Shown piece after piece: positions 12,072-58,112 of a stretch of DNA of 64,000 bases. Below the pieces are notes generated by a model that had not been told where the DNA came from, searched no databases, and saw nothing but the letters and a program-made list of their open reading frames with translations. Source of the DNA: Marsupella aquatica. Taxonomy: Eukaryota; Plantae; Marchantiophyta. Position 1 is the first letter of the stretch. Each line of letters begins with the position of its first letter. The translations under genes were made by a program, and so were the position numbers. The DNA is taken from NCBI GenBank assembly GCA_973895155.1, contig OZ316892.1, positions 6,493,251 through 6,557,250 on the forward strand. Reading direction: 5' to 3'.

Positions 12072-12539
12072 ATGTCACGTGAGACAAAGGTCAATGCCAT
12101 ATGGAGCATTTCTGTGCAAGTCATAGGGACATTTGTGTGCTCTGCGGTCGGATTGTGTACTGAAAATTTATTATGGACTCTGTTGGGTTTGCTTAGCCAA
12201 CTATTTCAATTTTTGCATGAAATTTTGGAGCGATTCATCGCTCTTGCACGTCCACCCCTAGAGATGGTTGATGCTGGGGGTGCAGAGGCCCCTCATCCTG
12301 ACATTGTCGGCCATGAAGCTTTGCCTCTGCACAAGATTTCTACGCCGTTAGTTTCCCATTATTATGCAGTGTCTAGAGGCCGTAGGCCAGGCATATATGA
12401 ATGTCACGAAGCCGCTGTCAAACAAGTCCTAGGTTTTAGTGGGAATAGTCATAGGTCTTTTAAGACTAGAGCACAAGTGGAGGATTGGCTAAAGACACAG
12501 ATCTTGTCGGGTTGGCATAATTGTCAATGTAAGACTTGA
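12072..12539 (+). CDS. 155-aa ORF: hydrophobic N-terminus plus RNase H1 N-terminal hybrid-binding (Cauli_VI/viroplasmin) domain
   Basis: YYAVSRGRRPGIYECHEAAVKQVLGFSGNSHRSFKTRAQVEDWL fits the consensus YYAV..GR.PGIY..W......V.GF....HKSF.T..EA..W; no RNase H catalytic domain follows. Confidence 0.8.
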   Translation: MSRETKVNAIWSISVQVIGTFVCSAVGLCTENLLWTLLGLLSQLFQFLHEILERFIALARPPLEMVDAGGAEAPHPDIVGHEALPLHKISTPLVSHYYAVSRGRRPGIYECHEAAVKQVLGFSGNSHRSFKTRAQVEDWLKTQILSGWHNCQCKT

Positions 12540-12836
12540 GTTCATTTGAATATGAGACAAATTTGGAATTTCAGGCGATGTTGTGTGTTCTTGCATGCGA
12601 TTGAAGGCCAACTTGACTCCCTTTCTTATGTTTTCCTCATGTGCACATATACCTACTCCTTGCTTCCAAATGTCTTTGCCCAAGTGTATCGTTGCACACT
12701 ATAACTACTTATTGATGTTGTGAAGTAAATTTGTGTGCAGGTCTCTGAATCTGTCAGTGTGTTGAAGGACTTCTGGGATACCAAGCTTCCGTCTGCGTTG
12801 AAGGTCTTGCATGTCTCTTACTGAGAGTGGATTTTC

Positions 12837-13322
12837 GTGAACCATATCCACCAGATTCCTTGGTCATCCACCTACATCAGGCAAGCAACAACCAAAACTT
12901 GGCGAGGTATGGTGACCACCCGTTCTATGAGGAGAGCAGAGGACACTCTAACCAGATGTGTACGCAGACTATACAAGTTGATGGTTTGGGATGAAGTCCT
13001 CCCTAGAGGTCTAGGGGTCTTGTGCTACTACCGAGACATTGCCCCTATCAGACATAGCAGTCTGCCTCGAGCACTCCGACGCGTCCCAAGACCTAAACGT
13101 CTACCCATATACCTTCAATTTTGTGTGAAGACCGATGGAGTGCCTGACGCCTCCAAGGCTCAGCTTAATGCCTGTATCCATGAATTGGATGCAGAGTGCA
13201 GTATCTGTTCCCAAGACCCGGCCCTTGATGAGAATGCAAAGTTGAATCAGCTTCGTCGGATGGCCCGTTTCTGTTGTGTGGTTTATAATACACACCCTTG
13301 GGTGAATCTGTCCATACCTTAG
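12837..13322 (+). CDS. Unknown cargo ORF (161 aa; first ATG at 12909)
   Basis: Open frame just downstream of the acceptor at 12741; Cys-containing; no family recognised. Confidence 0.35.
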   Translation: MNHIHQIPWSSTYIRQATTKTWRGMVTTRSMRRAEDTLTRCVRRLYKLMVWDEVLPRGLGVLCYYRDIAPIRHSSLPRALRRVPRPKRLPIYLQFCVKTDGVPDASKAQLNACIHELDAECSICSQDPALDENAKLNQLRRMARFCCVVYNTHPWVNLSIP

Positions 13323-14282
13323 GATGGACCCAATTTTCACAGTAGGGTAGTTTAGGTTACTTTGTGCCCTGAATTATGTGTTGGCTTGTGCACAGGGAGG
13401 GGATGTTCCTCTTGTGTCCACACTGAAAACTAGATCAGGTTTTTGCACTTTGCTCCTGTGGAGCTATTTTGTACAAGGAATGTTGAATGTATCAATTTTG
13501 AAGGCAGTGAGCCAATAGAGGAAAATTGGTCTGAGTTCCTTTAATTTGAGGAACCATGACGATATTTCCTCCATTTTGAAGAAATTGAGGAAATACTCCA
13601 TTTGTTCAAAAGAAATTGAAGGCCTGCCAGAAAATTGCTATCATTCAATATGGAAATGTATGGTTTAGAACTCACTTTGGATTTGTCCCGGGTGTTGTAC
13701 TCCAGGTTTTATTAATTTCAAGCAAGGCGCATTCACCAAATAGGTCGTGTATAATTGACCTCAGGGCCCCTCGCCCCAGTACTATTCCATCAACAAGGTA
13801 CGTCGTCATTCGAGTTACCTCATCTCAATTTCCTTTGCTTTTCTGGATTTTCTGTCTAGTCTAACGACAGGGATTGTGTGTTGCTCAGGTAAGTAACACA
13901 GGGCTGGTTGTTACATGTCCATTCTGCATTTCTTTTAGAGCTCTTGCATGCGTTGCTGTGCAGGAATGCTCGACTTCAAGGAGACCCCAGGGAAGTGATG
14001 CCCTTGGTGGAGACTGCTGGAATTGGTCCCCAGCAGTCTAGCGCTCCTTGAAGGAGAGGCAGGTTGCCTGGGAGGGGGGGGGGCCTTGGAGTTGGCAGCC
14101 AAGTGCAATCGAGTTTAGAGCCTGGTCATAGGGTTGGGTGGTCCGGGAGACAATTCCAATAAAATATTGAGTCATCGACTGAGCGAGTCAGTAAGGAAAT
14201 TTTGACTTGGCCATCTGTGTTTGAGTGGAGGAAATTGGAGTGGTGGGCCTGGCCCCGACTGCACATGGCTGAAGCACAAGTC

Positions 14283-14579
14283 CTCGGGGGTTTCACTTCC
14301 ACAAAAATGGCATATCATGTGCGACGAAGGATAGGGTCATTTTATTGGTTGTAAGGGAAGACTTAAGAATTTTTGTAGAAGAACAATAGGGTCTTTTAAA
14401 TTCAATTTTGAGACTTATAAGAACATTAGGGCCTTTTTAATCCAATTTTTGGAATATTCCAAGAATATTCCAACTTTATAGGGGTTAAAAAATAATATTT
14501 TTTTCTTACATTTTAGGGGGTCCAAGGCCTAAAAACGTCGCAGGTGATGGGGAGGTCCCCATGTAGTGAGACCCCCAAG
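14283..14579. mobile_element. 297-bp MITE, copy 1
   Basis: TIRs CTCGGGGGTTTCAC..GTGAGACCCCCAAG; CACAAGTC flanks the left end and recurs on the right after a 3-nt filler (CTG). Confidence 0.9.
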
Positions 14580-14891: not shown

Positions 14892-15575
14892 ATGTTGGAG
14901 TTTCACATATACCTCCCGGAAATGGACCCATACTATTGGGGCGATGGGGCCCTTCTGAATCAGCTGAAGAGGCTGGATTCGAGTCTTATCTTGCGTATTT
15001 TTAAATTAATTGTGCAGGCATCCGACTTGAACCAATATCATTTTTACTTAGATGAGCAGGAAGGGGTTATTTATATTCAATGGGACAGATATGTTTGTTG
15101 GTGTAATCGGTTAGTTCTCCTTCTTCTAAAGACTGGTCCAGTGAGGCGTCTGATTCTCCACTGCTGCCATGTGGTAGATGGCAATCCCTTGTATGATCCA
15201 AAATTTTATGCTGCCAATAGAAGTAGAGCATTCGATGAGATCCAAGATATCATTGATCATATCCCAGATCCTCTTGCCACAGAGTTCCTCATTGACAGTG
15301 GTGGGAAACTTCATTCCTATCGGAGCCATGAACTACCTCCTAGACCTCTACGTAGGTTCTTCAAGATGATCTATAGTTCTGGTCTGTGGACTAGTGTGCT
15401 AGCAAATGGGGAGGCGTGCACTTGCTGCGTTAATGCCTGCTGTGACATTCCGTCATGTAGGTATTTGGTAGCAGTAGTGGATCCCGCTACCGGAGCGGTG
15501 GACTTCCATTGGCTGTGGGCTTATGATCATACGGTCACCCATATCCCTCATTGGCCCAAGAAGCATGTATTGTGA
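14892..15575 (+). CDS. Unknown cargo ORF (227 aa)
   Basis: ATG-initiated intact ORF with globular composition and a Cys cluster (CTCCVNACC..C); no family recognised. Confidence 0.45.
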   Translation: MLEFHIYLPEMDPYYWGDGALLNQLKRLDSSLILRIFKLIVQASDLNQYHFYLDEQEGVIYIQWDRYVCWCNRLVLLLLKTGPVRRLILHCCHVVDGNPLYDPKFYAANRSRAFDEIQDIIDHIPDPLATEFLIDSGGKLHSYRSHELPPRPLRRFFKMIYSSGLWTSVLANGEACTCCVNACCDIPSCRYLVAVVDPATGAVDFHWLWAYDHTVTHIPHWPKKHVL

Positions 15576-15996
15576 TTTGATGTAGCGTGGTTTGATACTG
15601 ATACAGAGCCTGAAGATAGTGAGGATGAGATCTTAGTATAGAGGTGCTATAGTTTGCCATCCTTCATTTTGAGACATTTTCAGACTGCACAATTTTGTAC
15701 TTTTAAAGTCTTCACCTGTTTAGACTTTCATTCTAGCGGACATCATTTGCATTGTATTCCCTCATGCTGTGCCTGCCATTTTCATGTGCCATGCTATCAT
15801 TTTGTTGGCTTTGTCTGTATTTTTGCACGGGAAGTAATGATAAAACCACAGACTTGGTAACTTGCGGTTTAGAATGCAAGCCAGTTTAAGAAGGCAAACC
15901 CGTGTTACTAAACCGTCAACCACAAGTATAGGTTTCCTATGTCTCCGAACTGAACTTCCTGTGCGAAGAGGTTGAAGTGATGTTGTCATTGTTGGA

Positions 15997-17617
15997 TTGT
16001 TTGCAGGGAAGAATTGTCATGTTCCTATGCCGTCCGTGCCTGTATATCGGGTAAACAATGAGTCAGGAGACCAAAAGCATTTGGGATCCCTTAGTTGCAA
16101 GGAGGTTTGGACCTTGGCTGACGCTAGGCAAAAGATGGTGGACCTGGAACTTTGGGATTTTGAGTTCCAGTTTATTGATGTCAATTTCAATAGTCGAATT
16201 AAGGTTGCCTGGGAGAAATGCAACCTCATTGAGGACTGTGGAGGGAAACTCGTCGTTATCCCAAAGGTTGGGACTACAATACCAGCTCCCATACTGTCGA
16301 CATTGGGAGTAGCAATGTTTCCAATGGTACATCTCAAACTTGCAGCCAGGGTGATGACCTTGACACCCAACGTGTCAAGGGTACTGACTGGCTAGGAGAT
16401 GAGCTCCCGTTGCCCAACCTTCCCTTGTTGACACTCCTCGACCAGTTGAGGAGCAAGTGCTGCAAGTGAGTCTTAAGTCAACAACTATGCCAAAGGAACT
16501 GGAGAGGCATTGGTTGAAAGAGGTTGATAAGTTGAAGGAGCACATGGTGTCCATCAATGCTGCACACCACAAGTGGAAAGTAATGACTTGGGACAAAGAT
16601 GGTGTTCCTTGTGGTAAGATAGAGTGTGTAGAGTGTCAGTGCAATAGGCTGGGAACATCAAAGGGGTTGATGGACAGAGGGAGCATCACTAACTGCTTCA
16701 CCAATTTCAAACAAAAACATCTCATTACAGATAAGCATGCATCAAATGTGGCAACTAATAGGAGTGAGAAAATTGACGGAGTGGAGATCTCCAAGAGGGC
16801 TGCAGCATCTTTACTGAGTGATAGAAGCACTCTTGACATTCATGTCAAGATTGTGGAGCGTGTGAATGACAGTCAGGTGGTTGACCATCAGACTTTTGAA
16901 ATCGTAGGTGACCTTAGCAAGGAGCCTGTGGAGCTGCGTAAGTTTAAACTTAGGTGTTATTTTTGCACAGAGTATCTTGTATTGATACAACGTAATTTGG
17001 AGTCAAATTTGCAGTCCCATTGTAGTAGTGTGAACCACTTAAACGCAGTGGCCAGAAGTCAGAAACCACCCACTGGTCAACCAGTTCTATCAGGAAAGGC
17101 AGGCAGGCCACCCAGAAGCGACAAGAGAGATGTTCGACAAAGAACAATTGGAGGATTCTTAAGTCGACAAGCTCGAGATAAAGCTTCCAGCAGTCAGCCT
17201 AGGGGTAGCGAATCAAGTGGAGGCTCGAGCAGCCAGACTGGGGATTTAGCACCAGATAAAGGTATTTTGCATGGATGGTCGTTGTTGTGTTGGGGGTTGT
17301 GGAGAGATGTGGTCATATACAGAGGGGAAGTCAGGCCTATCAAGGAAATCCTGTTTGACCAGCTTAAAGTGGAGGGTGACTGGTTTGCAGAGCCTCTAGT
17401 CATTGCCAAGGTGTGGTGTCTATCAACCCAAGAAACATGTGCTATTCAAGGACTGTTTAGACACAAACAGTGCAGTAGAATGTTAGAGGCTGGCGGTGGT
17501 TTTCGAGACCTTACTTGCCAGCAATGTTACTCAATAAAATTTAGGGATGATTTTAGAGGAAGAGTTAGTCGAGAGGCCATCTCAACTCTGAAAAGAGGGA
17601 GCAGAGGGACCGGAAGG
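15997..17617 (+). pseudogene. P-like transposase, N-terminal part (zinc-finger region)
   Basis: ORFs 15997-16395 and 16457-17623; CxxC..HxxxxxH fingers (CVEC..KHLITDKH; CYFC..SHCSSVNH) and HKQC..CQQC; truncated exactly at the CACTA-A1 TIR. Confidence 0.7.
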
Positions 17618-17959
17618 CACTAGTGGAAAATAGTGTCCTTAATGACTAGAATGAGGACTGAAAAATGAGTCATATGTACCAATATATGACTAGAGCTTTT
17701 CTGTCATACCTGCCTCGTCTTTTAGGACAGTCAATTAAGACAAATGACTAAAACTCTCACCAGTCATTTATGGTAGTCCTAAATGACACAATATTTCTGA
17801 AATGACAGGTTGTCCTAAATGACTGAATGAACGGCCGTCAGTCATTTAGGTATGTCTTTAATGACACATATTTAAACAAATCATATTACAACACGTGGCA
17901 ACTACGCACGGTTGTCATTATATGTCATTTCAGACATGTCATAAATGACACAATAATAA

Positions 17960-18275
17960 ATCATTTAAGATGTCATTTAGTGTGTCATTGAAGGTGTCGT
18001 ACAGGGTGTCATTAAAAATGTCATACAAGGTGTCATACAAGGTGTCATTGAGGGTGTCATATAGGGTGTCATTGAGGATGTCATACAGAGTGTCATACAT
18101 GGTGTCATTGAGGGTGTCATTGAGGGTGTCATATATGGTGTCATTGAGGGTGTCATACATGGTGTCATTGAGGGTGTCATTGAGGGTGTCATACATGGTG
18201 TCATTGAGGGTGTCATACATGGTGTCATTGAGGGTATCATACATGGTGTCATTGAGGGTGTCATACAAGGTGTTT
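17960..18275. repeat. 12-bp subterminal tandem array (GGTGTCATTGAG / GGTGTCATACAT)
   Basis: Visible 12-nt periodicity; the GTCAT/ATGAC core is also dispersed through both subterminal regions, as expected of TnpA-binding repeats. Confidence 0.92.
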
Positions 18276-18560
18276 TTAAGTAATGTCATTTGGGATGTAT
18301 CTAAGAAGAGCTCATAGTTGTATTCAAAATCACATACAATGAATCCACTTAAAACCCTAAACAAAGACATCACTTTGCGCATCATCATTGTATTCAGAAA
18401 TTCACATTCCAACATTCACAAGCTCTAGTATAGAACAATTGAAAAAACATAAGTCTTTATGATGAAGTGATAGAAAGTACACATTTTTCACTCGCATGAG
18501 TGAAATAATGGTAACCAAAATATTCAAAAATTCTCTGTTCTACATGATCAGAGAAAATGT

Positions 18561-21545
18561 TCAACACTTCCGAAGAAACCTAGCATTCCACAATGTATTC
18601 ATTCCTAACACATTCCGTAAGCAGAGTTGTTTCTCTTCTTTGTTGGGCATTGGCAATGCTGCATCACCACAATACACTGCCTTAACTAATACTCGCACCC
18701 AATGACTCTCAATCATGACACAATGAAATTTATCCTCTCCTGGTAACCCTGTCACTTCACCTCTAGCAACAACTGTAGAGCGATCCACAATGCTTCGTAC
18801 TTCTACAGCATCTCCTTTTGAAAACTGCCACACAAAATTGTTAGGAAAAAATATTGTCTTGTAATACTGATTTGGGCATATCATCAATTTAAGAACATAA
18901 GCCAACTGAAAACAAATTCACCTTTGCTGCTGGATTTGGGGAGAGAACTGGTACTCGTTCACTAGGTGAGATAGTGATAGGGGTTGATTTCTTGAATCTC
19001 TTTGAAGGCCTAGGTGGTGTAGCCTCTTGTTCCTGAATTGCATTTGACATTATCTGTTCATCTGTGACAGCAATCTCATCGCTCTCACCATTACCAATGC
19101 TGCTTTGTACAACGCAAGGTTCCTGTAGTGCTCCCAAATTTTCTTCTCCCATACTTGGCTTTGGCTTCTGCCTTGTTAAAGTATCTGATTTCTCTCGCTG
19201 TGATACAGGATTCTCCCCTGAAGAAGCTACCACAAAACCAAACAATGAATGCTTAGAAAACTTCATTTTAAATTGAAAAATAAACTATTGCATATGTAAC
19301 ATGTTTAGAGTATAAGTTTGTATGTTCTTACCATCACCATCACCTGAGAAAGTAAGAGAACGTTTCCTGCTACTACCTTTAGGCTCAACCACCACCTTAG
19401 TAGCAATTGCATTTGATAATTGCATATGGAACTGATTCTGTTGATTTTGTGCAATGAAAGAAGTCATCATAGATGTCAAATTGTCCACTTTGAATTCAAG
19501 CTTGGTTAAATTCTCCACAGATTGTTCAAGCTTGAGTAATCGAGCTGGTTCCTCAATTGTAGTTTTCCTGGACAGTGGAGTCTACATACACAAACACACC
19601 ATACAATGTCAATCATCAATGATAATTTGAACATCATGGATAACTGATAATCAAAATTGAATATATACACAGGTTTTCATTACATACCGCTGATCCATGT
19701 GCAGATCCAATTCCAACAAAACTACTGCCTCGATGTTCACCACTGCCCATAGATGGACTGATCTGCACTAGGGGGACTGGACTACTAGACACAAGTTTTG
19801 ATATAACAGGGCTCGTCATTCCTTTTGCTTTCTGGAAACACATAATCACATTCAAAGCAATTGGAATATTAATGAGAACTCATCATGTCATTGTTTATTC
19901 CTATACTAGATAAACACTTCAATTCAAATGACAGTCTAGACCTGCAATGAGATGGACCATCTGAAGATTCTTACCAATCTTTTTTCTGCTCCAGCAGCCC
20001 CTCCTCTTCCAAAATGCTCTTTGTTCACCACTTCTGCCCTCCTTGCTTTCATCACAGCACTCCTTGCAAGCAAAGCAGGACTATCAAAATGATCCACCAG
20101 TCGTGCCCATTTTAATGGGTCAACATATTGAGGTCCTGGTTTGGAGCGATCACGTTTACATACATCCTTCCAATAAGTATTTAGTTTGTGACGTTCTCTT
20201 TTCAATAACGTCCGGCAGTGACTAATAAATTTCTTGTCAGACACTGACTGCTTATCTGGATACTCCCAATCTGCCTTCATCAATTTCTGCACATCCTCAA
20301 TTATGTTTGGATCTTGTTTGTTCCAATCAGGTTCTGATACATCAAAAAGCCTCAAGACATTGGCACGTAGCTCCTCCATCCAATATGGTTTATTAGGATG
20401 AGAATCATGAATATCATTGTCATGAATCTGAAAAAAACACCACAAATGATAGTCATCAACATTGGGAATGAAACAAACACCCAATTGCTTCTGAGTACAC
20501 AAACTGTAGGCCACAAATGTGAAATGTGCAATGAAAATCTTACCGTTATCAATTTTCCCTTCTTATTGTCAGCCCTTCTTGCACTACCGGTTCTCTGGAA
20601 TTGTTTTTTGGCTTGCCTAGATTCCCTGCGTTGCTCTGTTGCAGTCTTTCTTCCCTCTACATACACAATGAGCATCCAATATTGATCATCCACAATTGCA
20701 AATTGAGGGACAAGAAATATTACAATATAATAGGAGGACGCTTCATTGAATTTGACTTACCTGAACCCTGACTGGATGTCACTACTGCAGAGTGTCCAGA
20801 TTTCCCAATCGATGTTGATGGAACCACCACTATACACATGCAAACCACTGGAGTTATGAATCCAACATTCATATAGATCAACATTGAAAAATACATTGAA
20901 AATCTTTGAAATTACTTACATTCAAATAGCTGGCCAGTCACAGGGTCTTTGTAACATTGCACCATGCCACTCATGGAAGGTCCAACCTTTGTAGGGGTTT
21001 CTTTTGCATCTGCCAAGCTCTTAGATGGAGGTTGCAGATGTTCCTGTCCAGATCAAGTTAAAACGAATGTTATTAAACAGAATCATTACCAATGTCTATA
21101 GTTTCCTCATAATGTTGGTGAAATGTAATAGGAATCTCACCTTGGATGAACTTTCTGGTTTCTCATCTTCACTGTACTCAGCATCAGTGTCATAATCTGA
21201 TTCAGAGCCCTCATCACCAGACTCTGCCATACTCACTGAGGCAATTCTTGATAGTCTGGAACTCTGTCTTCTCTGTGTGGTAACCTCACTTCTAGGAGTT
21301 CGACGTGCACTTGTTTCCTTCTTGCACCCTACGGTCTGTGTTGCACCCAGTCTACATCAGAGAATATCAATGAATGAATGACAAGTATCAAAAACCAACT
21401 CATATTGCTGATGAGCAATATTAACACATCTTTGCACATTCAAAACAACATGCAAGATTATACTCACATGAGATTGAAATTTTCTCCAAATATCTCCCTG
21501 AATTTTCTATTGTTGTCTGCTACCTTCTTATTTCGTTCCTCCTCA
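18561..21545 (-). CDS. Multi-exon TnpA-like protein of CACTA-A1 (Transposase_24/Ptta region plus C-terminal Transposase_23-like domain)
   Basis: WEYP..CRTLLKRERHKL..PGPQYVDPLKWARLVDHF..HFGRGG; C-terminal VVARGEV..FHCVMI..WVRVLV..DAALPMP..LW; many short GT-AG introns; exon limits approximate. Confidence 0.8.
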
Positions 21546-21649
21546 TATGGAGGTATTCGCTGCATTCACTGCTAGACTATGGCATGCCATGTTAGTATGA
21601 TCCCACTCCCAACTAAATGAAACCGGACTGTACAGTATCTTCAAACCAT

Positions 21650-24600
21650 TTATTTCCTTTTATACTTTCTTTTTCCTTTGTCTCTAGTACTTGGTCCAGG
21701 CTCCTGTCTAGTTATACAGGCTTCTGCCAACTCTATGTGAAACTTAGCATTGTCATCCATAGTATCATGGAAATCAACTTCCATGTAATCACCCAGCACT
21801 CTTGTAGACCTGGATTCCTTGTGGAGGATTGTCCTCCATGCAATCCCCTTATCATTTGGGTAAAAAAACACCTGTTCTATCTGTCGTGGCAATACATAGT
21901 CCATTTTCTTGGAAGCACCCAGCTCCTTCTGAAAATTTACTTGCCACAATCCAGACGCATCATATCTCATACTTGCAGTGGCTTTGGGAGTCCAAGATGG
22001 GTTTGCCCACCTTCCTTTGAAAAGGACCACTTCCTTTATCAGAGGCCCATAGTTCAACACTAAGATGTCTGTCAACACCCCCACATATTGTATAGATTCA
22101 TCTACTGTTGCCCCTGACCTAATGACCTGCTTCTCAGTGAATGTACAAGCCATCCCAGAATCAAAAGTCTTGAACTCAGATGAGTCACAATCAATCAAGG
22201 AACCTAGTGATGGAATGGTCCTCCAATGGTGCCCATAGGCTCTGCAGGCCCTGTACCGCAGTGCCTTCAGACTAGGTGGTACACTATACGCTGCCAACAC
22301 CATTCGTTCAAACTCATTCTCAAAATTATGCCTTCTAATTGTCACTTCAAACCATTCTCTAAAAGGAGGCAACTCATCCAAATCAGAGGGATAAGGCACA
22401 GGATTCCTCCGATTTCCTGGATTCTTCATCCATTCTTTCCGGAAATCTGCTCTGTGCTTGGTAACTGCCTCATTTTGATCATCATAAACCCTGCATGGCA
22501 AGAATGACAGTCAGCTCCTAGGCCCACACAATTTCTGCTCAAAACTCAATTATGTTTAATAATAAACAACAGAGAACTTAACAATATAAACCATGCTCAT
22601 ACCTATACCATGGTTCCACCAGCTCTTCATTCTCCAGTATGTAATGATGCATAGCTATCATATCATTCCACTCCAAGGTGATCTGTTTTCCAGCTCCTTC
22701 CAAGACAATGCCTGCAACACCAGGATTCTCCTCCAAGTCCCATGTTCTCATTCCTGTCCCCTTAACATCGATCATGTATTCAGAAAGGAATCCTAAAGAT
22801 TCATCCAGAAGGTAGCCTTCAGCCATAGAAGCCTCTGGACGTGCCTTGTTTCAAACATAACCCTTCAAGGTCTTTAGATATCTTTCTATTGGGTACATCC
22901 ATCTAATGTTCACTGGACCATAGATGTCTAGTTCCTGAACCAGATGAATCAACAGATGGGTCATGACATCAAAGAAGCTTGGTGGGAAATGAATTTCCAT
23001 AAGGCAGAGTGTGAATGCAACATCCATCATCACAGAGTCGTACTGTGAGGGATCCCAAACCTTGGCACAGATGGTACGCCACACATTGCTCACTCTGGCT
23101 ATGGCCAACCGAACACCTTCATCAAGTAATCCCATTGTTGCCAATGGAAGGATTTGTTGCATGAGGTGATGGAAATCGTGAGATTTCAGCCCTGATAACT
23201 TCTTCTTAACTGTGACACATTTAGCCAGAGAACTGCTGAAACCAGTGGGCCCTTTAAAGGTCAACAATACCTCTAAGAACTTAGTCTTCTCTGTCTTACT
23301 GAGGCAGTATGGGGCTGGCGGCATGATCTTTGAATCTTTTTTTGGATCTGGATTTGGAACCAGCCACAGGTGTTCCCGCACGTCCATGACTTTCATGTCT
23401 TCTCGAACAGAAGGAGTATCCTTTGTCCCCAAAATAGTGTGCACAATGTTGTGTGCAAGATTCTTCTCACAGTGCATGGGATCCAAACAATGGTTGATGA
23501 GAAGTTTCTGCATTGGACGCACAGTTCAGTACAAACTAAGTTAGAATAAGAAATGTTACTCTTTGCTACTTAACATTAATACACACTGAGGGATTCAGTA
23601 TGGGAAACCAGATACTTACACTCCAGTACGGCAGCTTGTATAATCCAGTAACCCTCTTCACTCCATTCTTCTTTACTGGAGAGTTTTCATCATCCAGCGC
23701 ATTCCCTGGTTTCTTCTCCACATATTTAGCGGCATTTTCTCCCTAGCGTTTCCTATCAGAGCTGGACACTCTACACGGTGCAGCTCGTGCCTCTACCTCA
23801 CCATTAAAGTATTTTGCCACTTCCTCTGTGCGAAAATAGTGTCTCTGTGGTAACCAGCGACGATGGCCAGCAAACAGTAACTTGCCCAACTGTTTTGAAC
23901 CATGTGCCACACAATTTGGCCCACAAACCACACATCCTTTGTACCCTGCATGTTGTTGGCCAGAGACTAATCCATATGCAGGATAATCATTGATTGTCCA
24001 CAATACTGAAGCCCTTAGCTTGAACTCTTGCTGCAATCCTAGCCTTGGTAGAACATCAAAACAATCCACTCCTTCTGACCATAATGTCTCAAGATCATCC
24101 ACAAGTGGAGCCATGTATACATCAAATTGTTCCTCGCTTACAGACACAGGACCTGGAATTAGAAGAGCCAGCATGACAAAGAACTTCTTTGTGGAAAGCC
24201 AAGGAGGGATATTATAATTCAACAGCAGGATTGGCCATGTAGACCAGGCAGTAGAATTATTCCCAAATGGATTTACCCCATCAAGTGCCAATCCCATTCG
24301 CACATTCCTTGGCTCAGCAGCAAAAGCAGGGTCGATCTCTGTGTCCACATGTTTCCATGCCTTTGAATCTGCTGGATGTCGGACCATGTTGTCCTTGCTC
24401 TTGTTCTCATGATGCCAAGTCATTAGCTTAGATGTACCCTTAGTGGCATACAATCTCTTCAATCGAGGGATTATAGGGAAATATCTCAAGACCTTCACAG
24501 GTTGTAAAGAATTCCCCACTAACTTCATCTTTGGCTGATTACACTTGGAACAATTGTCCAACTCTGCAGTCTCATTTCTAAATAACATACATCCATTCTC

Positions 24601-25441: not shown

Positions 25442-25608
25442 GATTGCAGCACTACCTAATCAAAAACACAGTTGCACATCTTTCTTCTTTGACATCTTGT
25501 AGAGCATATGAATTGTTCTAGACAACTCCAAAACCCTTCCATACCATCTTCTAGAGCGTCATGTGAAGCAAATGTGTGCACAAGTGAAGAATTAGACATA
25601 CATTTGAG

Positions 25609-47225: not shown

Positions 47226-47431
47226 TACTGTAACAAATACAAGAAGCAATAATTTATCCAACCCAAACACTCAATGAAATTCATGCAACAATTTAAGATT
47301 CAACTATTTCATACAATCAGATAGTCCATTAGATAGTGTAGTCCACTTCATACTATAATCAAACAATTTAGTCCACTTCATGAATACTTAATACTATGTC
47401 GTGTTTCTCTACACAACTGAAGGCTTATGAT

Positions 47432-48130
47432 CTATTTGAAATCATGAGGTGGCACATCAGAACCCTCTGGAATGACATGGCGATTGCAGTACACCATACG
47501 CCATGGACCAATATCCCAAGTTTCTCTACCCTTAACCCCTCTCTTCAGGTGTTTGTCTGCCTCTGGTCCTTCATCTCTGCACCACGCACGAGGGCACCTA
47601 CGACACTGGATAAATTCCCAGATGCCATCCCGATACTCCTTGCACACATCACAATAATGCCTTGGGCATATCAGAGCAGCGGGATGTGCATCTGAGTTCT
47701 CTGGATAAGTTATCAGAGGCAACTCGTTCGCCCTCAATATAGTCCGTAGACAACCCACATGGTAAAAGGAATAGCAATCGTCCTGTGCACACTGAATCAC
47801 AAGGGGCTCATCTGTAGTGGGTTTCACGGTTCGGCCAAGTGACCCACAAGCAAAGCAACAAGCTCGGTTCTGCTGACAGAGGTCACAGAGCCACTCCTTG
47901 TCCCAATCATGCCCTCTAGAAATGGCAATGCGTGTGCACTCAGGCCCATGGCCATCAGGCTCCTCAACATCCTGCCCATCAACTAAGTAATGAAAATGTC
48001 GACTGCAAGGCCCATCGCAGAACAAAACAGTACCTCCCTCATCACATTCAAAACAACAGGGGGGATCCATGCGAAGGTGCTCCTTATGGGCAAACTTGGG
48101 ATCCAACCAGGCAGCAGCAGCCCGTGCCAT
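47432..48130 (-). CDS. EDM2/NSD-type tandem PHD-finger protein (232 aa), cargo of CACTA-A2
   Basis: 22 of 232 residues differ from the A1 copy by my count; no indels or stops; predicted Zn ligands retained. Confidence 0.85.
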   Translation of the reverse strand: MARAAAAWLDPKFAHKEHLRMDPPCCFECDEGGTVLFCDGPCSRHFHYLVDGQDVEEPDGHGPECTRIAISRGHDWDKEWLCDLCQQNRACCFACGSLGRTVKPTTDEPLVIQCAQDDCYSFYHVGCLRTILRANELPLITYPENSDAHPAALICPRHYCDVCKEYRDGIWEFIQCRRCPRAWCRDEGPEADKHLKRGVKGRETWDIGPWRMVYCNRHVIPEGSDVPPHDFK

Positions 48131-51100
48131 GCTGAAGAAAATAAAATCTGCACAATTGCCTTCAACATCACTCCAAAGTCCATTCAAAAACCAAGAGACA
48201 AACACAAAGAAGGTAAGTGAAGTGTACTTACTCACAGAGCAGTTGAGCCAGCCCCAGTCGCACCTCCAACCAGCACAGACCTGTGGTTACCACACTCATC
48301 AGTCTCCCCAATATTTATTCCCCAATTGCCCCAATATTTATTCTCAGTCTAGCCAAACCAGCCTACAGGCCTACACCAGCTATTAAGTTTTCCCTAACGT
48401 CCCAACTGACAAAACAGCTCAGCCTCTGTTGCACTTAAACTAGAACAGAACATACATCTGAAAATATTCTGATCATCACCTCCAAACCTTCCGCTTTAAC
48501 AAACAAATCACAGCCGTCCGTACGTAGCTCTCAATCAATAAACATACAAACCCTGAGAGACACACCCTATCAAATTACTTTAGGAGAAGTAAATATACTC
48601 TACTGTAACTGAATTCTAGGTTTGACATGATTGTATGAATTTTAATGGGTATCCTGTTCAGGAGATCATTAGTTGAAGTGTTCTAAGCAGCTCCAATTCT
48701 CAAATACGCACCTAAGGCCTTAGCAGAATTAATAATTACAGGCTTGTTGCAAAAACTATAAGGCCAGACAGGATACCTTAAGGGTGAAAGGTTTGCGGAC
48801 AATCTGTAGAGAGCAGATTGCCTACAATCAAATCGAGACGCCCATAAACCCTGCACAACCACCACACAACAATTGCACATTGCTGACAGGAAATCACATG
48901 AAAGAATGCAGTATAACCAGAAGGGAAGAAGTATAATGCTTCTAAAATTAACGGACTTTGAAGAGCATAGCAGACCTCAGACATGATTTGCCGTTTGGTT
49001 CAGACAAAAATTAATGAGACAAGAGAGACAACAAGGTACCCGAACCTTGCAGCGGGAAGGGGAAAAAGGGACGCAATGGAGGAAAGAGGAGAAGATGGGC
49101 TTTCAAAAGAGAAAACACGACCGAGCAGGGTGAGACAAGCAAGACTTCATCAAAGGACAGAACGCTGGAGTATGAAATCCATGATTACTCTGTTTTTAGA
49201 TATATTATATTTTCAGAAGAATAAGGAAGCAAGGCCTAGTGGATCCACACTGTCTTAAAGGTACTAGCGGGCAATATACAAACATCCAATCCCAAGCCAA
49301 CAGATATAACATTTCTTGGCCAGCACAGACAGGAAGCTCGAGAGGAGCACAAAGCAAGCCGCACAGGGTGAGAGAGAGGCATGAACACAAAAACCTATAC
49401 AGACCAGAACGAAAGCTCCCTTCAAGCTGGGACTCTACTCTTGATTGATCGATGTTGCTGATACTAGCTAGTGCACTTTACTGAACTGAAAAAAACATTG
49501 ACAGCATCGGGCAGTGTAAGTGAAAATGAAAGCATTAAGAAGCAACAGTAGTCTCAGGGATTGAGGTGGGGTTTTAGGTAGCTTTGGTGCAGGAAAAAGT
49601 AAGGAGGGAATGCTAGGCATTTCCTAAGACCAGTAGCCCAATCAAGGTGATCAGAGCAATAAGTAAAATACAAACGGGGATACAAATGGCAAAGGCATGA
49701 CAAGAGAAAAGGGAATGGCCAAGGCATGACCACACGCAGCTCAAAGCCAAAGCAGAAATTCCAGAGCAAAGTCAAGAAGGACCAAAAATGATGTAGCGGT
49801 ACACACCAGATCACCCCAGATCACCCCAGATGCCTTCTACTTTTCCAATACCGCTGATGCAGACCCTAATGTCGAGCCCTCGCGCCTGCACACTTGATAC
49901 CCCCGATCAATTTCATACCATCACAAACGAGTACCGTATGCAATGTTCAAGAAGATGTTGCATCTGCAACCCAGGTTGAGACCATTTTCAGGGAGCGCAG
50001 ACGACAGCGCATGTTGATTTGACAGATAAGGGAGCAACATTGAAAGAAAAGCAAGCTGCATATTGAAGACTTAACATTGAAAGCTACCGTGGGAATACTC
50101 ACAAATCAGCAGCGGCCTCCAGTGCAATGCCTCCCACCCCCTCCACGTTCTCCTTCAAAGCCACGCTAAGGTCGACGCTACACACTACACTCACAGGAGA
50201 GAGATCGATCAAGGCAAAAATGCAAATCCGCAACCTTAGAGTACACTGTATGGAGAAAAAGAGCAATAGGGGAAGAAAAGCAAGGGAAGCAGACACAAAA
50301 GCATTAAGCAAAAGACAAACGGGGATGCCAAGCAGAAAGCATGATAGGAGAGAAGCGAATGGTTGAGGCATGACAAGACGCAGCTCAAAGCCAAAACAAA
50401 GAGGCATACATACCTTCAACCGGAAACTCTCTTTAAGCTCAAACACACAGAAGCTGCAGCAACTCGCAGCTTCCCCTAGCGCTCGATCACACCAACTCAC
50501 AACAATCTGTAGTTGCTCGCAGCAGTTTGCAGCAAGTCCCTAAACTCCCAGCAGCTTGCAGCTCCCACCAACACCTCTCAGCGGCTCCCAGCGAGTCCAA
50601 CAGCGCACCAGGAAATCTCCTGAGGAATGCAGGTCCGAGCTCGAGCTCGATCGTCAACAACTTACAGTGAAGCAAGGAACTTCCTTCACAGTCCTAAGGT
50701 GCAACTCGCGACTCTATTCTTGCTGCTTCGATCACAAAAGGTCCTTTCAGGTGAGCGCCCCTCCTTCCTGGTCGCCGTTGCACTGATTGCTGGCAGCTAG
50801 AGTTCCCTTCCACAATGACGGGAGTGTGCGTGTGCTTGAGGTGATCAGCGATGGTGGGCTGTACATAAGGGCAGCAGTAGGGAGTTCCCCCAAGAGTTAT
50901 GAGCCTTTCAGAAATCACGATGGCGGCAGCAAGTAGGAACGTAGGAGCTCGGTCCTAGGGCAGCTTCCCACTGCCCACAATAACAAAGTGCGACCCTCCT
51001 CCTCCACCCTAAACCGTAGTCCCAAGTTGCAGCTGAACTCCACAGCATCCGATTAGAAGGCCAGACTAAACTCCCGAGTTGATGAGTGAGTAAGTGCACT

Positions 51101-51914
51101 CTGCGTCGCAACGATAAACCCTTCGACAAACTGCGCAAAGGAGCAGGAAAACCTCAACATTCGATAAGCTCTTCGCAAAGTTCTTTGTGAAACAGGGAAT
51201 CCAATGAGCCGGGTGCTTCTAGCAGTTCCCGCCAGTGACAAAGGCAAGGGCCGGGGGATTGAGGGGATGACATGTGGACGATGGAGATTGCATCCAACTG
51301 CGACTATGAACGGGAAACTTCAACGGTCCAAGTGAAGGGGTTACTAGGGCCTTATTCCCCCCATAAAGGACTTAATTAAGTATGTGATGTCATTAGGGAG
51401 TGGAAAATGACTTTGCACCACCCATAACTATTTTTCTCCCCCAAAAGTGCAAAAATTACTAACACACCCTCTAGAGAAAAACAATTCCAAGAAGCCCCTT
51501 TGGGCAATCCATCAGCCATAAAGCATCTCAAATAATTGAAATGTGTGGCTAAGTTAACAGGAGGAGTTAATTGGCAGCCTAAAGGATATTTGGCGGTACC
51601 TTAACGGAGTTCTGGGCGTAATTTAGCAAAAGACATAATCTGCAATTTGGGCCCCTTTTTTCTTAACTGAAATGATGGAAACTTGGTACGGAGCAGTACA
51701 ATAAATCATCTAAATGAGAACTTACTCCAGAATATCTAACATAGATATAGTCAAGTGTGTTTGGTATACTAAGGGACCAAAAGCTATCGTGACTCTTTTG
51801 CCCTCATGACATATATGCAATGGTATGACCCCCATAAAGTGAAGTCTGCCCATATAATGACTCCAACATGGAAACAAAGTAACATAGACCAGATTAGGGT
51901 CCAGGGTTGAAGTG

Positions 51915-53725
51915 TACCCTATCCCGCACCATGTGGAGTGGGTAGCATCCCTAATGGCCGGCTCAGATCATGTATATTGTAAATAAGCCCCCAAAGGCCC
52001 CAAGGAGTCATATTGTCCATGGCATGCTTGACTGCCGCATTGACATCATCAATTTATGACTCATATTTGTGTCATTTGCTTAAATGACACCCCTCAGCAC
52101 TCCACAAATGACAAAAACCTTCAATCACATGCACAAATGACTCAAGATCCCTTACAAATGACCAAATGGGAGTGGTTTGCACTCCTTTGGACAAATGACT
52201 CCAAAGTCATACAACTTGGGAGTGTTTTGCCCAAAGTTGGGTGATGCCCTTCCATGATGCAAAATGTGTGCTTTAAAAAGTGTTGTGGAGGCCAAGTGGC
52301 ATAACTAGTGGCTCACGGTGTACAAGTACCCCATCCCGCACCATGTGGAGTGGGTAGCATCCCTAATGGCCGGCTACGATCATGTATATTGCGAATAATC
52401 CCCCAAAGGCCCCAAGGAGTCATATTGTCCATGGCATGCTTGACTGCCACATTGACATCATCAATTTATGACTCATATTTGTGTCATTTGCTTAAATGAC
52501 ACCCCTCGACACTCCACAAATGACAAAAACCTTCAATCACATGCACAAATGACTCAAGATCCCTTACAAATGACCAAATGGGAGTGGTTTGCACTCCTTT
52601 GGACAAATGACTCCAAAGTCATACAACTTGGGAGTGTTTTGCCCAAAGTTGGGTGATGCCCTTCCATGATGCAAAATGTGTGCTTTAAAAAGTGTTGTGG
52701 AGGCCAAGTGGCATAACTAGTGGCTCACGGTGTACAAGTACCCCATCCCGCACCATGTGGAGTGGGTAGCATCCCTAATGGCCGGCTACGATCACGTATA
52801 TTGCGAATAAGCCCCCAAAGGCCCCAAGGAGTCATATTGTCCATGGCATGCTTGACTGCCGCATTGACATCATCAATGACTCATATTTGTGTCATTTGCT
52901 TAAATGACACCCCTCAGCACTCCACAAATGACAAAAACCTTTAGTCAAGTGCACAAATGACTCTATATCCCTTGCAAATGACAAAATGCGAGTGGTTTGC
53001 ACCCCTTTGGGCAAATGACTCCAAAGTCATACAACTTGGGAGTGTTTTGCCCAAAGTTGGGCCATGCCCTTCCAAGGTGAAAAAGTTGGGTCATAAAAAC
53101 TATTGCGAGGTCAAATTGAGATAACTAGTGGCCCAGAGTTTAGGTGTACCCTACCCCGCTCCATGTGGAGTGGGTAGCATCCCTAATGCTGGGCTACAAT
53201 CATGGATATAGCCAATTGACCCCCGGAGGCCCCAAAGAGTCATATTGTCCATGGCATGCATGACTGCAACAGTGACATCATGAATGACCCATTTTTGTGT
53301 CATTTACATGAATGATGTCTCCCAGCACTTCCTAAATGACACAAACCCTTAGTCACGTGCACAAATGACTCTAGATCCCTTGCCAATGATTCACAATAGT
53401 GGTTTGCACCCCTTTGGGCAAATGACTCCAAAGTCATACAACTTGGGAGTGTTTTGCCCAAAGTTGGGTGATGCCCTTCCATGATGCAAAAGGTGTGTTT
53501 TAAAAAGTGTTGTGGAGGCCAAATGGCATAACCAGTGGCCCAGGTTTGTCAAGTACCCTATCCCGCACCATGTGAAGTGGGTATCATCCTTAATGGCCGG
53601 CCCCTATCACCAATGGGGTCAATCAGCCACCAAAGGCTCTTAAGAGTCATATTCTGCATGGCATACGTGACCACAACATTGACATCCCAAATGACATTTG
53701 CATAAATGACATCTAGCGGCACTTG
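51915..53725. repeat. ~408-412-bp subterminal tandem repeat (~4.4 copies)
   Basis: CCCGC.CCATGTG recurs near 51923, 52335, 52747, 53155 and 53562. Confidence 0.92.
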
Positions 53726-54626
53726 TCAAATGACTAGAAAGTTGAGTGAGAGCAAAAATGATTGGGAATCCTTTGCAAATAACATGAATAATATATTGGA
53801 AAAAATGACATGAGCAAATATAGGCATGTAGTATCTAAATTCTAAACCTTAAACCCTAGACCTATGCCCGAGAGTGTTATTTGGCAACCTTGCATGCCCC
53901 CATATAGACTCCAACATGTGAAATGTGAATACAGCTTAAGGAATGTAAACACTTCAGGAGTCCTTGGCATATATAGGAAAGATGTAATAAATGGGTGCAA
54001 GTATATATAAATATACATACTTATTAGAGATTATCAAGCCTTTAAGTTGTACATCAATTTAATGATGAGACTCACAACAAAAGAAGGCTTGTTAGGTCTC
54101 TAAATGTATTTCAAATCTAATATGTGAGTGCCACTAGTCTTTATATATACTACCATACGTTTTGGATGACTAATCATACCCTAAACCCTAAAACATATAC
54201 TAAACCATAAACCTCAAAATAGTCATATGTTGTTTATCATGTCATTTATCACTTTTGGTTTAAATGACTACTAACATTTTTAAACACTGATATTTGCATA
54301 TTTGATTTATTAGTCATTAGTCACCGTCGTCTGAAATGACTTCCCATATGTGAAACACTGATATGACAGAGTTTTTGTTAATTGTGTCATTCACAAAGAC
54401 TGTCCAAAATGACTACAACTCATGATTGCTGTCATTATAGCAGTCAAAGTCATTTGGCTCATTGGTTTAAATGACACTATTACAAGTATTAGTCATTTTT
54501 TGCACCCCGTCATTTTGGACAGTCATTTCAATGTCATTTATGTCATGTCATTTACATATTTTGTCATTTGAGCACATAAGTCATATGTGTCATAGTCATA
54601 AAAGGCCCCATTTTCTACTAGTGAAT

Positions 54627-55550
54627 GCCTTCGTGATGCTGGTTGGGGGATCTCCTAGTTGTGCTGCTATTGTCTCCCATTTTTGTAGTGCTGCATGTAG
54701 AGGGGCCATGTCCACTTCCCCTCCTTCGGAACGAACGACCTCTGCTAACCTGACTTCTTCTTGCCACTTTCGCGTTGCCTGCCAGGCTCGGACTTGTAGC
54801 TCTTCATCAAGCCACGCTGCCCAGACTTCAGGGAGAATTGAATCTGGGCATCCCTTCTCCTTGATCACCTCAGCTTCGCCTGGATCCTGCTTGAGGTAGG
54901 CTCACAGCTTGTCTCTCTCATGATTTCGCCGATCGCTTAGGTTCACTGATATCCTTTTGTTCAGAAACCTGTCATCCAAGAAATGCCCATTTGCAAATCT
55001 CTCTTTCACTTGCTCCCTGATGCTGAATTTCTCCCTCTCGGGCTGGGTGCCCCAGTACTGCGAAGGGTGGAAATTAGACCTTAGAACTTGCAACAATTGA
55101 CTGCAAAATAGATTCTAGCTTGAAGGTATTGGGGATCCTCCCTTGTTTAAGGCAAGCATAGGTCGCTTGGCCCTCTCCTCAGCTTTTTGCTTCTCCTCTT
55201 GAAGCTGTTTCTTCTCTGCAACCCTAGCTTCCTTTCTGAGCATTTTCTCTCGCTTCCTGGGAGAGAGGACATCCTGTGCAGCTGGCGCCGAAGCCCCTTT
55301 CTTCTCCTCTCTCCGCTTCTTCTTCTTCTCGTTCTCTGCCTCAACCCTAGCTGCCCATGCTCGTTCAGCCTCCTCCCTTGCTTTCTTGTGGGAGTCATCA
55401 ATCAAGAGTTGCATTAGCGGCACCACCTTGTCTGCATCCTCTGCCGAAAGTCCAGCCCGCAACTGAAACACCTCCCTCATGGTGTCTGAGAAAACCTGTG
55501 AAGGACCAGCTCCATCCCCACCACTTCCACTCTGCCCTCCATTCGCCATG
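54627..55550 (-). pseudogene. CACTA-B TnpA-like gene, 5' part (divergent from TnpD)
   Basis: Coiled-coil/Lys-rich N-terminus, then YWGTQ..VKERF..ISVNLSDRR..CPDSILPEVWAAWL, comparable to the A-family TnpA core; stops at 55115 and 54902. Confidence 0.65.
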
Positions 55551-56596
55551 GCCTCCCCCCGGTCCCCTCTAGCTTTGCTGTTCGACCTCGCTGCAAAAAC
55601 TAAAGAACATGCCAAATTTACCAACGAAAGAGTCTTGCGATTCGCGGCCCGACTATGTTGCCTTCGCATTATAGTCGGGTGCAACTTTTCTTTGTGACTT
55701 CCATTTTCGATGCTATAAATATGGGAACTTGTGTTACTTCAAACATCGGACATTGAATGGCAATTTCCCATACTTAAAACATCGGACCCCTCTTTGCAAA
55801 ACATCGGAAACTTACCAACTTTAATTTTCAGCATAGCTTTGATGTGCATTATATTATATGCCTTCAACCCATTGGATTATATTAGTTTAGGGTAAAAAAG
55901 ACATACACTAACATCTAATTTGCCATTTGTTTTCTACTCTTATTTGTAGCGGCAAAGTGGGAGGGGATGGAGGTCGTGCATGTAGTGGGAGATCGACCCC
56001 ACCAACGTTGTCAAAGCTCAATATTAGGCAACATTTTTTGGGGTAGTATGCATTATTTATTGTGGACATTTTCCGGTGCATGTTGTCTTTTTTTTATAGT
56101 TTTGGGATTCTAACATATCAACAATGTCTATTTAAGGCGTATGCAGTTTTGTTTTTGAAGGGGTCGTTGGGTTTAGGGTTTTGCAAACAATTAAATGCAT
56201 TATGCACCACGAGAGCCCATGCATCCGAAAGGTATGCTATGTCTTTGGAATTGGTTTATTGAAATCATTGCATATGTGTTGGTTTAAACTATAGTAGCCA
56301 CCCCATTTCAATGCATAGATGAGGTTTTGAATGTTTAGGGTTTAAAATGTTTGGGTTGGCAGTGAGTTCGGATATTGCCTCAAACTTCTAGTTTGACGCC
56401 AAGATCCTAGTAGGCACTACAAAGCACGGGTATCATACAAGTAAGTTCCATGACCCCCGCACATTATATGTACCTAGTCACTATGCTCTATTATATTTGC
56501 ATATGCACAACAAAATTTTGTAGACTTAGATGTTTTTTCATTCATAAAAACCCCATGATGACTAACTGAACCCCATCAATTGGCTTCATGTTACAG

Positions 56597-56821
56597 ATGT
56601 CGACTTCTGATAGTTCCATGTCAGATTCCGACTCCGACTCCTCCTCTGAGTCAGAGGGCGAGATTCATGTGCCTCCTCCTCCTCCACCTCCACTAGGGCC
56701 CATCCCTTGCTGGTGTGTGAGATGTAAGGGAATGGTTGTTCGCCAAACATACATCACTATTCAGCACATTGAGGACTATGGCAGACATGAGGGTGATTTG
56801 CCTGGGTATTTAGCGAGTCAG
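56597..56821 (+). CDS. CACTA-B TnpD exon 1: transposase-associated domain
   Basis: CWCVRCKG..IQHIEDYGRH matches CSCMECKG..RQHLLKYGRY of the A-family TnpD; ends CAG|GTACC in phase 0. Confidence 0.8.
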
Positions 56822-56970
56822 GTACCTTGTCCACACCTAATGCGCATCCCGGCCATCTGGTTGTTAGATTTTTATAGGTTTCACTATGTGTACATTTGTT
56901 TTGTAATGCATATGTAAGCATGTATTAATCTGGGTCTTAATTGCACTCTTCTTGGATATCTCATGAATAG

Positions 56971-57954
56971 GTGACACGTAGGCCTTCAACTCCACTACTC
57001 TCAAAAGAAGTGTGGATAGAGTCATTTTTGGCAACGGCAAAAAACATGCTTGCATCATCCTCTGCAGCCACGGCTCCAATTCCATCCGAGCCTACATTGA
57101 ATCTTCTTGAGAGTGGCCAGTGTCCACCTGAGAGGGTATTGGAGCCTATAGTTGAGCCTCATGAGGAGCCGCCTAGTCCACCAGTCAACCGGGTGCAGCC
57201 CAAACATGGTCAACCTACTAGGACACTACGCACAAGGCCACGGTCTCAAAGACGTAGACGACATTATGAGCCAATTGGTACAATAGAGCCTGGAGAGGAT
57301 GAACCTCAGGTTGGGAGGGCACCTAGAGGTGTAGATTGCATTATAGTTGAGGGCCGTTTTGGATTGTCATATGTCCATGGGAGGGCAGCTGAAATCTTGA
57401 AGGACTTCAGCTCTACAATTTTCAAATTTCCCTCTACCATTCCCTTGGAGCAACCGGTACACATATGGGGTTATTCGTGGATAATTAAACCCTCCTCTAT
57501 TGGACCTCACATTGGATATGGCTTATTTGCTGCCAAGGATATTTTGGTTCCTCAAAAACCTTGGCGGCGAGGGTTTGATGGGGTACATTTGTTCCCTTAC
57601 ATTGGTCCTGTATATTCCAGTAAGAATTGGAATATACTAGTGCGCCAACACCCGTCTTGGGCAGTGTATGCCCTTAGGATGGACTCAGACCCCGATGAGG
57701 TCTTCACAAGGCCTTGGCATTGTCGCATGATTGATGGTGATCCAGTGCGTAGTGACAACATAGCAGGTTACATCAATAGTACTCAAGGTAGAGGTAGACA
57801 GTTGGAGCCCAATGTAGAATGGGTTCAATGCTTTGGTCCACCACGAGAACCTTACTATGTAAAGCATATGGATGACCATATCATGACGGTAGCCATACGG
57901 GACATTAGAGCTGGTGAGGAGTTGTTGTGTGATTATGAATGGGAGGAACCCAAG
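56971..57954 (+). CDS. CACTA-B TnpD exon 2: Pro-rich linker plus SET domain
   Basis: IKPSSIG..GYGLFA.KDI; FPYIG; IDGD...SDNIAGYINS; PNVEW; AIRDIRAGEELLCDYEW; flanked by ATAG| and |GTTAAG, both phase 0. Confidence 0.88.
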
Positions 57955-58112
57955 GTTAAGATACGTCTTGAGGGTCCCCGATGACATGTACACCTATTTC
58001 ACTACACATGTGTATATATATTTGACTCTTCATTATCCACGACATTGTGTAATTATTTTGGATGGATCAATCAATAATAGTGTGATTTGTAATGTTGTTG
58101 CACATATGATAG

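Follow-up and report, generated by a model that had tools for sequence, protein, structure and literature searches.

A nest of dead DNA transposons in a liverwort

We analyzed 64,000 nucleotides of the genome of the liverwort Marsupella aquatica (contig OZ316892.1, positions 6,493,251 to 6,557,250 of the forward strand; hereafter the window, to which all positions refer). The window holds dead DNA transposons nested in one another: two copies of one CACTA element (CACTA-A1 and CACTA-A2), a different CACTA element (CACTA-B) and an element with a P-like transposase (Table 1). Our main subjects are a SET exon in CACTA-B and a triple PHD-finger gene in CACTA-A, both of which appear to have been kept by selection in active lineages.

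Self-comparison and a search for termini gave the order of the nest: CACTA-A1 and CACTA-B each interrupt the P-like transposase, and CACTA-A2 sits within CACTA-B. The interrupted host frame resumes across the insertion sites of CACTA-B (in the P-like frame) and of CACTA-A2. The element ends and target-site duplications (TSDs) of the three CACTA copies, together with the split P-like frame, bear out the description of a nest of three different DNA transposons in an earlier note on this DNA. CACTA-A1, CACTA-A2 and CACTA-B belong to the CACTA/EnSpm superfamily: their CACTA/G termini match at 11 of 12 bases in CACTA-A and 10 of 12 in CACTA-B, the TSDs are 3 bp long, each element encodes a Tnp2 transposase with DUF4218 and DUF4216 (Pfam), and subterminal repeats lie at the ends (dense ATGAC/GTCAT in CACTA-A, ATCGGA in CACTA-B).

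Table 1. Features of the nest, by position in the window. TIR, terminal inverted repeat; ORF, open reading frame; MITE, miniature inverted-repeat transposable element.
Feature	Position	Strand	Remarks
CACTA-A1	17618..33024	-	15.4 kb; TIR CACTAGT(G/A)GAAAAT; TSD AGG; inside P-like transposase
CACTA-A2	37898..54623	-	16.7 kb; TSD AAT; inside antisense gene of CACTA-B
CACTA-B	35609..62325	+	about 10 kb without A2; imperfect TIR CACTA(G/C)TACAT; TSD GTT; ATCGGA repeats at both ends
CACTA-B exon 1	56597..56821	+	75 codons; transposase N-terminal zinc finger C-x-C-x2-C...H; phase-0 donor (56822)
CACTA-B SET exon	56971..57984	+	acceptor in phase 0; stop codon of its own; 57955 possibly a further phase-0 donor
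CACTA-B transposase core	58113..61697	+	phase-0 acceptor; two frameshifts; MITE at 61062-61358
CACTA-B antisense accessory gene	54624..55738	-	extends left of A2 near 37.8-37.9 kb; homologues in loci L007 and L008 (E = 6e-14, 2e-13)
Triple PHD-finger gene of A1	27583..28281	-	stand-alone; NSD-type cassette; open
Triple PHD-finger gene of A2	47432..48130	-	open; 91% protein identity to A1 counterpart
CACTA-A1 transposase	21650..25441	-	zinc finger, Tnp2, DUF4218, DUF4216; two introns; frameshift common to A2 and two stops
CACTA-A2 transposase	42000..45762	-	shared frameshift; 1-bp deletion; 25-bp deletion at intron donor
Second accessory ORF	26705..27163 (A1); 46782-47225 (A2)	-	one internal stop in A1, open in A2; Cys/His-rich; just downstream of PHD gene; no Pfam match
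Tandem arrays	31474..32432 (A1); 51914-53695 (A2)	.	408-bp unit in A1, 412-bp in A2; 52-bp internal palindrome; ATGAC/GTCAT-rich; upstream of PHD gene
P-like transposase, 5' part	15976..17617	+	split from catalytic part by CACTA-A1
P-like transposase, catalytic part	33028..35608	+	several lesions; PF21788 E = 0.0075, under cut-off
P-like transposase, 3' part	62329..62851	+	two stops
RNase H1 ORF	12072..12539	+	hybrid-binding domain at residues 96-140; 3.4 kb upstream of P-like transposase, same strand
ORF of unknown family	14895..15575	+	open; 226 codons; Cys-rich at end; no Pfam match

A SET exon lies inside the transposase gene of CACTA-B

The SET domain that the earlier note had seen in CACTA-B is matched by Pfam (PF00856, E = 3.7e-8, frame 56971-57981). 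The predicted gene structure makes this frame an exon between the zinc-finger and the catalytic exons of the transposase, not loose cargo. A profile built from three zinc-finger exons matched the transposase N-termini of CACTA-A (E = 2e-4 and 5e-3), and among the 340 ORFs of the window it found only these and itself; this N-terminal stretch of CACTA-A is Transpos_assoc in Pfam, under the cut-off (E = 2.7e-5), and Pfam had no match for the CACTA-B zinc-finger exon. The SET exon comes after the zinc-finger exon and before the catalytic one, and every predicted splice site is phase 0, so that a zinc finger-SET protein and a zinc finger-transposase are likely alternative products. Contigs of X1-X4 contained no joint at the predicted introns, which has no bearing on expression. 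The antisense accessory gene may play a TnpA-like role.

We then scanned metagenome contigs by SET motif and obtained 23 loci, 21 of which are one family with about 40% protein identity to the window (the main L family); locus L001 represents a second family. A Tnp2 core lies downstream in 11 loci and a zinc-finger exon upstream in 10, and 11 of the 23 loci break off no more than about 460 bp from the SET match. The exon-1 donor, the SET acceptor and the transposase acceptor are in phase 0 in the window, in L001 and in the main L family. In the latter two, a stop codon closes the SET frame immediately after the motif, on which ground an obligatory SET-transposase fusion was rejected. Loci L007 and L008 both have CACTAC at their start, bordered by unrelated flanks, and each carries a homologue of the CACTA-B antisense gene.

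A SET profile search returned 144 proteins, 45 of which were scanned; three, all Riccia sorocarpa models (P0060, P0082, P0093), also contain Transposase_21, and these fused models may be prediction artefacts over decayed copies. The zinc finger is joined to SET in Calypogeia P0001 and in Riccia P0025, P0033, P0052 and P0059. Of the relatives with a name, the one nearest to the SET frame belongs to Calypogeia fissa, with 61% identity across 98% of the length. Transposases linked to SET share 46-66% identity with one another and 38-46% with CACTA-A; these identities, which are not a tree, fit one old clade. Riccia and other plant-like families have this layout too, so it is old and inherited, and the earlier note's placing of the capture in this lineage is not supported. 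Distant NS-type SET relatives (P0136, P0144, P0146, P0151) were seen as weak matches in Ginkgo and Adiantum, one of them joined to a retrotransposon SH3 domain, possibly a wider spread or a source.

The structure model of the SET protein (mean predicted local distance difference test score, pLDDT, 65.7, with a higher core) was recognized by Foldseek as a SET fold: MLL3 and MLL1 came first (best E = 7.5e-7), with SETD8, NSD1, ATXR5, SETD2 and G9a within about 30-fold. SET lysine methyltransferases are marked by GxG, the catalytic Tyr of ELxxDY, and RFxNHS. The exon keeps GxG, the Tyr of FPY and the final Tyr, the last found in 68 of 74 motif matches. Between L001 and three copies of the main L family, the ratio of nonsynonymous to synonymous substitution rates (dN/dS) in SET was 0.30-0.45 (bootstrap 0.25-0.71); between the window and its relatives, near saturation, it was 0.31-0.59 for SET and 0.10-0.33 for the transposase. 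Fold, motifs and substitution ratios thus point to a real lysine-methyltransferase-like domain, kept by selection in active lineages.

CACTA-A carries a triple PHD-finger gene

The PHD fingers reported in both copies of CACTA-A are confirmed as the NSD-type PHD PF22908 (E = 5e-8 at 27586-28314 and 4.6e-9 at 47435-48286). The two copies are mosaic: their transposase arms are 97.5% identical and their PHD arms 86-87%, followed by 3-3.7 kb of unrelated sequence and then by tandem arrays about 80% alike. Because the PHD arm has diverged, selection on the PHD gene could be tested between the copies. Over 230 codons, dS was 0.24-0.30, dN 0.05 and dN/dS 0.17-0.22 (bootstrap 0.12-0.36), which shows purifying selection between A1 and A2; the near-identical transposases gave 0.61-0.77 (0.40-1.5).

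Three relatives of the PHD protein were found, at 57-70% identity and 226-247 amino acids long, in a search restricted to lengths 128-410, and the Cys/His pattern is kept in four sequences at 57-91% identity, including two full-length relatives. The protein groups with plant NSD-type PHD cassettes (Pfam; Atlas clusters 0.92 and 0.91). EDM2 is a long protein with a C-terminal methyltransferase-like region; the protein here has 232-233 residues and stops after the third finger, and that region was not found. The earlier label "EDM2-like" is plausible, and the tools give an NSD-type PHD cassette. Against the PDB the protein had no match singly and two weak ones as a profile, its structure model was unusable (pLDDT 31), and none of 22 pattern matches in viral contigs was a relative.

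Other parts of CACTA-A were also compared. The second accessory ORF has a dN/dS of 0.29-0.37 (0.15-0.93) between A1 and A2. The tandem arrays are reminiscent of those beside Plavaka PAG3 and are a possible binding platform. A1 and A2 share a transposase frameshift and differ in TSD, as would follow either from mobilization in trans after recombination between subfamilies or from gene conversion in place.

Accessory frames decay like the transposase in dead copies

The earlier note had drawn attention to accessory frames that stay open beside decayed transposases. All four domain-bearing frames are indeed open, and the three transposases carry stops, frameshifts or insertions; several apparent transposase breaks are introns. 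Counted by hand, lesions numbered three in 3.3 kb of the A1 transposase, two in 3.3 kb of A2, two in 3.1 kb of B and seven in 4.6 kb of the P-like gene. At these local rates, a cargo frame would stay open with a probability of 0.49-0.65, and all four with 0.09. Two other accessory frames carry one stop each: the second A1 ORF (26.7-27.16 kb) and an ORF at 12.74-13.32 kb. Pfam was run on 93 non-transposase ORFs and matched only the PHD genes of A1 and A2 and the RNase H1 piece.

Comparing the decay of cargo and transposase was the test that the earlier note had set for itself. In the 21-copy family, the SET core had 18 stops and frameshifts in 11,268 bp (1.60 per kb) and the transposase exons 20 in 12,555 bp (1.59 per kb; p = 1.0), with L001 and L021 excluded and large insertions not counted. 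The loci had been picked by SET motif, which biases toward intact SET, and a difference was still absent. Measured against the majority sequence, SET had a dN/dS of 1.14-1.18 and the transposase exons one of 0.66-1.35. Slower decay of the cargo is thus not borne out, and with a joint probability of about 0.09 and equal decay in 21 related copies, openness beside a decayed transposase is not confirmed as more than chance: in these dead copies, the accessory domains' open reading frames fit chance. The low dN/dS between families, set against neutral decay within a family, shows selection at work on the active lineage, not on dead copies of this kind.

The RNase H1 ORF, the P-like element and other features

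The third module named in the earlier note, an RNase H1 hybrid-binding domain, is present (PF01693, E = 2.4e-12, frame 12069-12536; 1QHK, E = 0.005). The conserved Trp of this domain contacts the hybrid; a His stands opposite the conserved Trp of 1QHK here. The ORF had been assigned to the P-like element as the third part of a toolkit, an assignment we could not sustain: it is not tied to any element, and neither inverted ends nor, among the contigs listed, one joining it to the P-like transposase was found. Inverted ends or a TSD of the P-like element were not found between 1-16400 and 62326-64000, and an end may lie beyond the window. Variant contigs cover the RNase H1 ORF, most probably a variable passenger in the 5' region of the P-like element; its domain is a nucleic-acid binder, not an epigenetic module. 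X1 contigs had uniform depth from 8.9 to 17.6 kb and X3 contigs a reduced one from 12 to 13.7 kb, which was not counted as evidence, depth not being copy number. Repeated short exon-like starts (CAG, then GTGAAGTGCAAGG) at 10833-10953 and 11939-12060 suggest a long spliced leader before the ORF.

P superfamily transposases contain a GTP-binding insertion and a D(2)H motif. The P-like transposase here has DYIH and EQFFS in its sequence, its PF21788 match is below the cut-off, and there was no relevant PDB match. Its C-terminal part (GSDCGVLF...WIGRV, 62329-62851) looks like an added domain and is followed by a Cys-rich ORF (63168-63647), neither with a Pfam match. A diverged copy (X3 record 20) connects the 3' end of the ORF at 14895..15575 with the P-like transposase. 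The ORF at 12742-13320, also upstream of this transposase, had no Pfam match.

A high-copy, 297-bp MITE with CTCGGGGG ends and an 8-bp TSD (clear at 25609 and 61062) occurs three times in the nest (14283-14579, 25609-25905, 61062-61358). Copies of CACTATATGGAAG at 1265, 2472 and 10635 were considered as a CACTA pair and rejected: they have no TSD, and the one at 1265 resembles the end of this MITE. Inverted arms at 856-1154 and 8325-8677 (73% alike, CAGGGG ends) may be another TIR element or two MITEs, and a small secreted-type ORF lies at 6999-7298 on the minus strand.

A proposed role in element chromatin

We propose that the SET exon of CACTA-B and the triple-PHD gene of CACTA-A were kept by selection in active lineages, where they likely manage the elements' own chromatin, and that they decay like the transposase in dead copies (probability about 0.55). 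What the sequences show is the arrangement itself, its return in other families, purifying selection from family to family and neutral decay inside one; the following course we infer. One CACTA-B transcript would splice exon 1 either to the SET exon, with its own stop, or to the transposase, like TnpA and TnpD of maize Spm; the layout predicts two splice forms. Either the shared zinc finger or the antisense protein, bound to the terminal repeats, would bring the zinc finger-SET protein to the element, where it would methylate a lysine, most likely a histone mark sustaining element transcription. The PHD protein would read histone H3 tails and, within heterochromatin, aid the element's transcription or the processing of its RNA. 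A small SET protein targeted by sequence would make a useful tool. The claim that the chromatin parts are not random captures stands for two of the three domains, SET and PHD, which dN/dS and, for SET, the recurrent layout mark as selected accessory parts of CACTA lineages. A further step is that liverwort CACTA lineages independently took up a histone writer (zinc finger-SET, self-targeted, activating) and an EDM2-type reader that carries the transcript through the element's own heterochromatin. We put this forward tentatively and rate it as rather doubtful; if true, it would be the first land-plant transposon anti-silencing system acting directly through histone marks.

Several observations weigh against the proposed role. 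The RFxNHS motif is absent, with GYINS in its place (NS in 83 of 95 motif matches, NH in none), and the sequence lacks a pre-SET or post-SET zinc cluster; because the NH motif reads NS and post-SET cysteines are missing, enzyme activity is not assured. MLL, SETD8, NSD, ATXR5 and G9a all fall within E = 7e-7 to 2e-5 and score so close that the substrate cannot be read from structure matches. The constraint on SET is weaker than that on the transposase (0.10-0.33). The exon-1 donor is lost in one other copy (56822 G>A), locus L016 has a truncated SET and then 10 kb with no transposase match, and 21 of the 23 loci belong to one family. None of 209 candidates for longer SET fusion proteins in one search was significant. 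The tie of the PHD gene to CACTA consists of two copies in this window only. Activation as the direction of the chromatin effect is a presumption.

The alternative that survives best, though we consider it unlikely, is that the PHD protein and perhaps SET serve target choice or a transposition step, steering insertion to repeat-rich chromatin with no silencing role. All three CACTA insertions in the nest hit coding parts of other transposons; chromodomains direct integration and PHD fingers are named in retrotransposons (PMC6673714), and PHD occurs in Rehavkus transposases (PMC6446971). However, three insertions of one nest are not independent, insertions in genes are purged by purifying selection, the PHD gene is separate from the transposase, and a writer domain fits this role poorly.

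Somewhat less probable still is a SET protein that is self-limiting or catalytically dead, marking its own element with a repressive modification or simply binding chromatin, with splice choice throttling the transposase. The family-wide loss of the NH motif and the lack of zinc clusters favor it, and so does the SET stop, which precedes the transposase exon, so that use of the SET exon diverts transcripts. The retained GxG, FPY Tyr and final Tyr speak for an active enzyme, and active SET-type enzymes without the NH-motif His exist, such as PRDM9.

We regard as improbable the version of the earlier note, in which three recent convergent captures form a counter-silencing toolkit still preserved in these copies. 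The four open frames of four, and the PHD and RNase H1 pieces as the only Pfam matches among non-transposase ORFs, would agree with it, but SET and transposase decay equally, the openness has a chance of about 0.09, the SET layout is old, and the RNase H1 ORF is untied to an element and lacks the conserved Trp. Least probable of all are neutral host fragments in the manner of Pack-CACTA: the unrelated 3-3.7 kb upstream of the PHD gene in A1 and A2 means that these elements do acquire DNA, but dN/dS well below 1 refutes this origin for PHD and SET, as splice phases and order conserved across families also argue, and leaves it for the RNase H1 ORF only.

Comparison with known systems

A managing role of SET and PHD in element chromatin would extend a known theme, since SET, TET/JBP, TnpA and PHD precedents in several transposon groups already establish convergent uptake of chromatin modifiers by transposons. 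CACTA-B is like En/Spm of maize and Arabidopsis in its CACTA ends, its 3-bp TSD and, as its splice phases suggest, in an accessory regulator and a transposase made from one alternatively spliced unit. Its alternative exon is a SET fold after the zinc-finger exon, unlike TnpA, a helix-turn-helix protein that recruits host demethylases. TnpA activates cognate Spm copies and leaves H3K9 methylation in place, and the tested plant anti-silencing proteins VANC and TnpA work via DNA methylation (10.64898/2026.08.24.746577).

Plavaka PAG2 of red algae likewise belongs to EnSpm/CACTA elements of 17-19 kb with a SET accessory gene and inverted-repeat tandem arrays beside the accessory gene (10.1101/2025.02.11.637652), but PAG2 stands as a gene of its own and is fused to a DNA methylase, whereas here SET forms an exon of a canonical plant Tnp2 gene and a methylase is absent. 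SET genes are also carried by the DNA transposons HarbingerS and Phytophthora MuDR, which belong to other superfamilies and hosts (PMC12730594, PMC6446971), and are reported in Helitrons too. TET/JBP genes occur in 11 fungal transposon lineages and, like VANC of VANDAL, are precedents for element-encoded activation; these systems likewise place chromatin modifiers in several superfamilies of one host group, so that the convergence proposed by the earlier note has a published counterpart there (PMC12730594). TET/JBP and VANC act on DNA methylation, unlike SET and PHD here, and the role of VANC has been tested.

The literature covered, which excluded Repbase Reports, most subscription journals and supplements, held no report of the SET exon layout or of a PHD-only gene in a land-plant CACTA element. 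Many Marchantia transposons bear H3K27me3 (10.1101/827881), so a histone-level counter-measure would fit liverwort chromatin. The PHD protein resembles EDM2 and the NSD PHD cassette in its NSD-type tandem PHD fingers and differs in being a 232-residue, PHD-only protein in a transposon; EDM2 binds chromatin bearing H3K9me2 and, in introns that are heterochromatic, suppresses early polyadenylation (PMC7529245).

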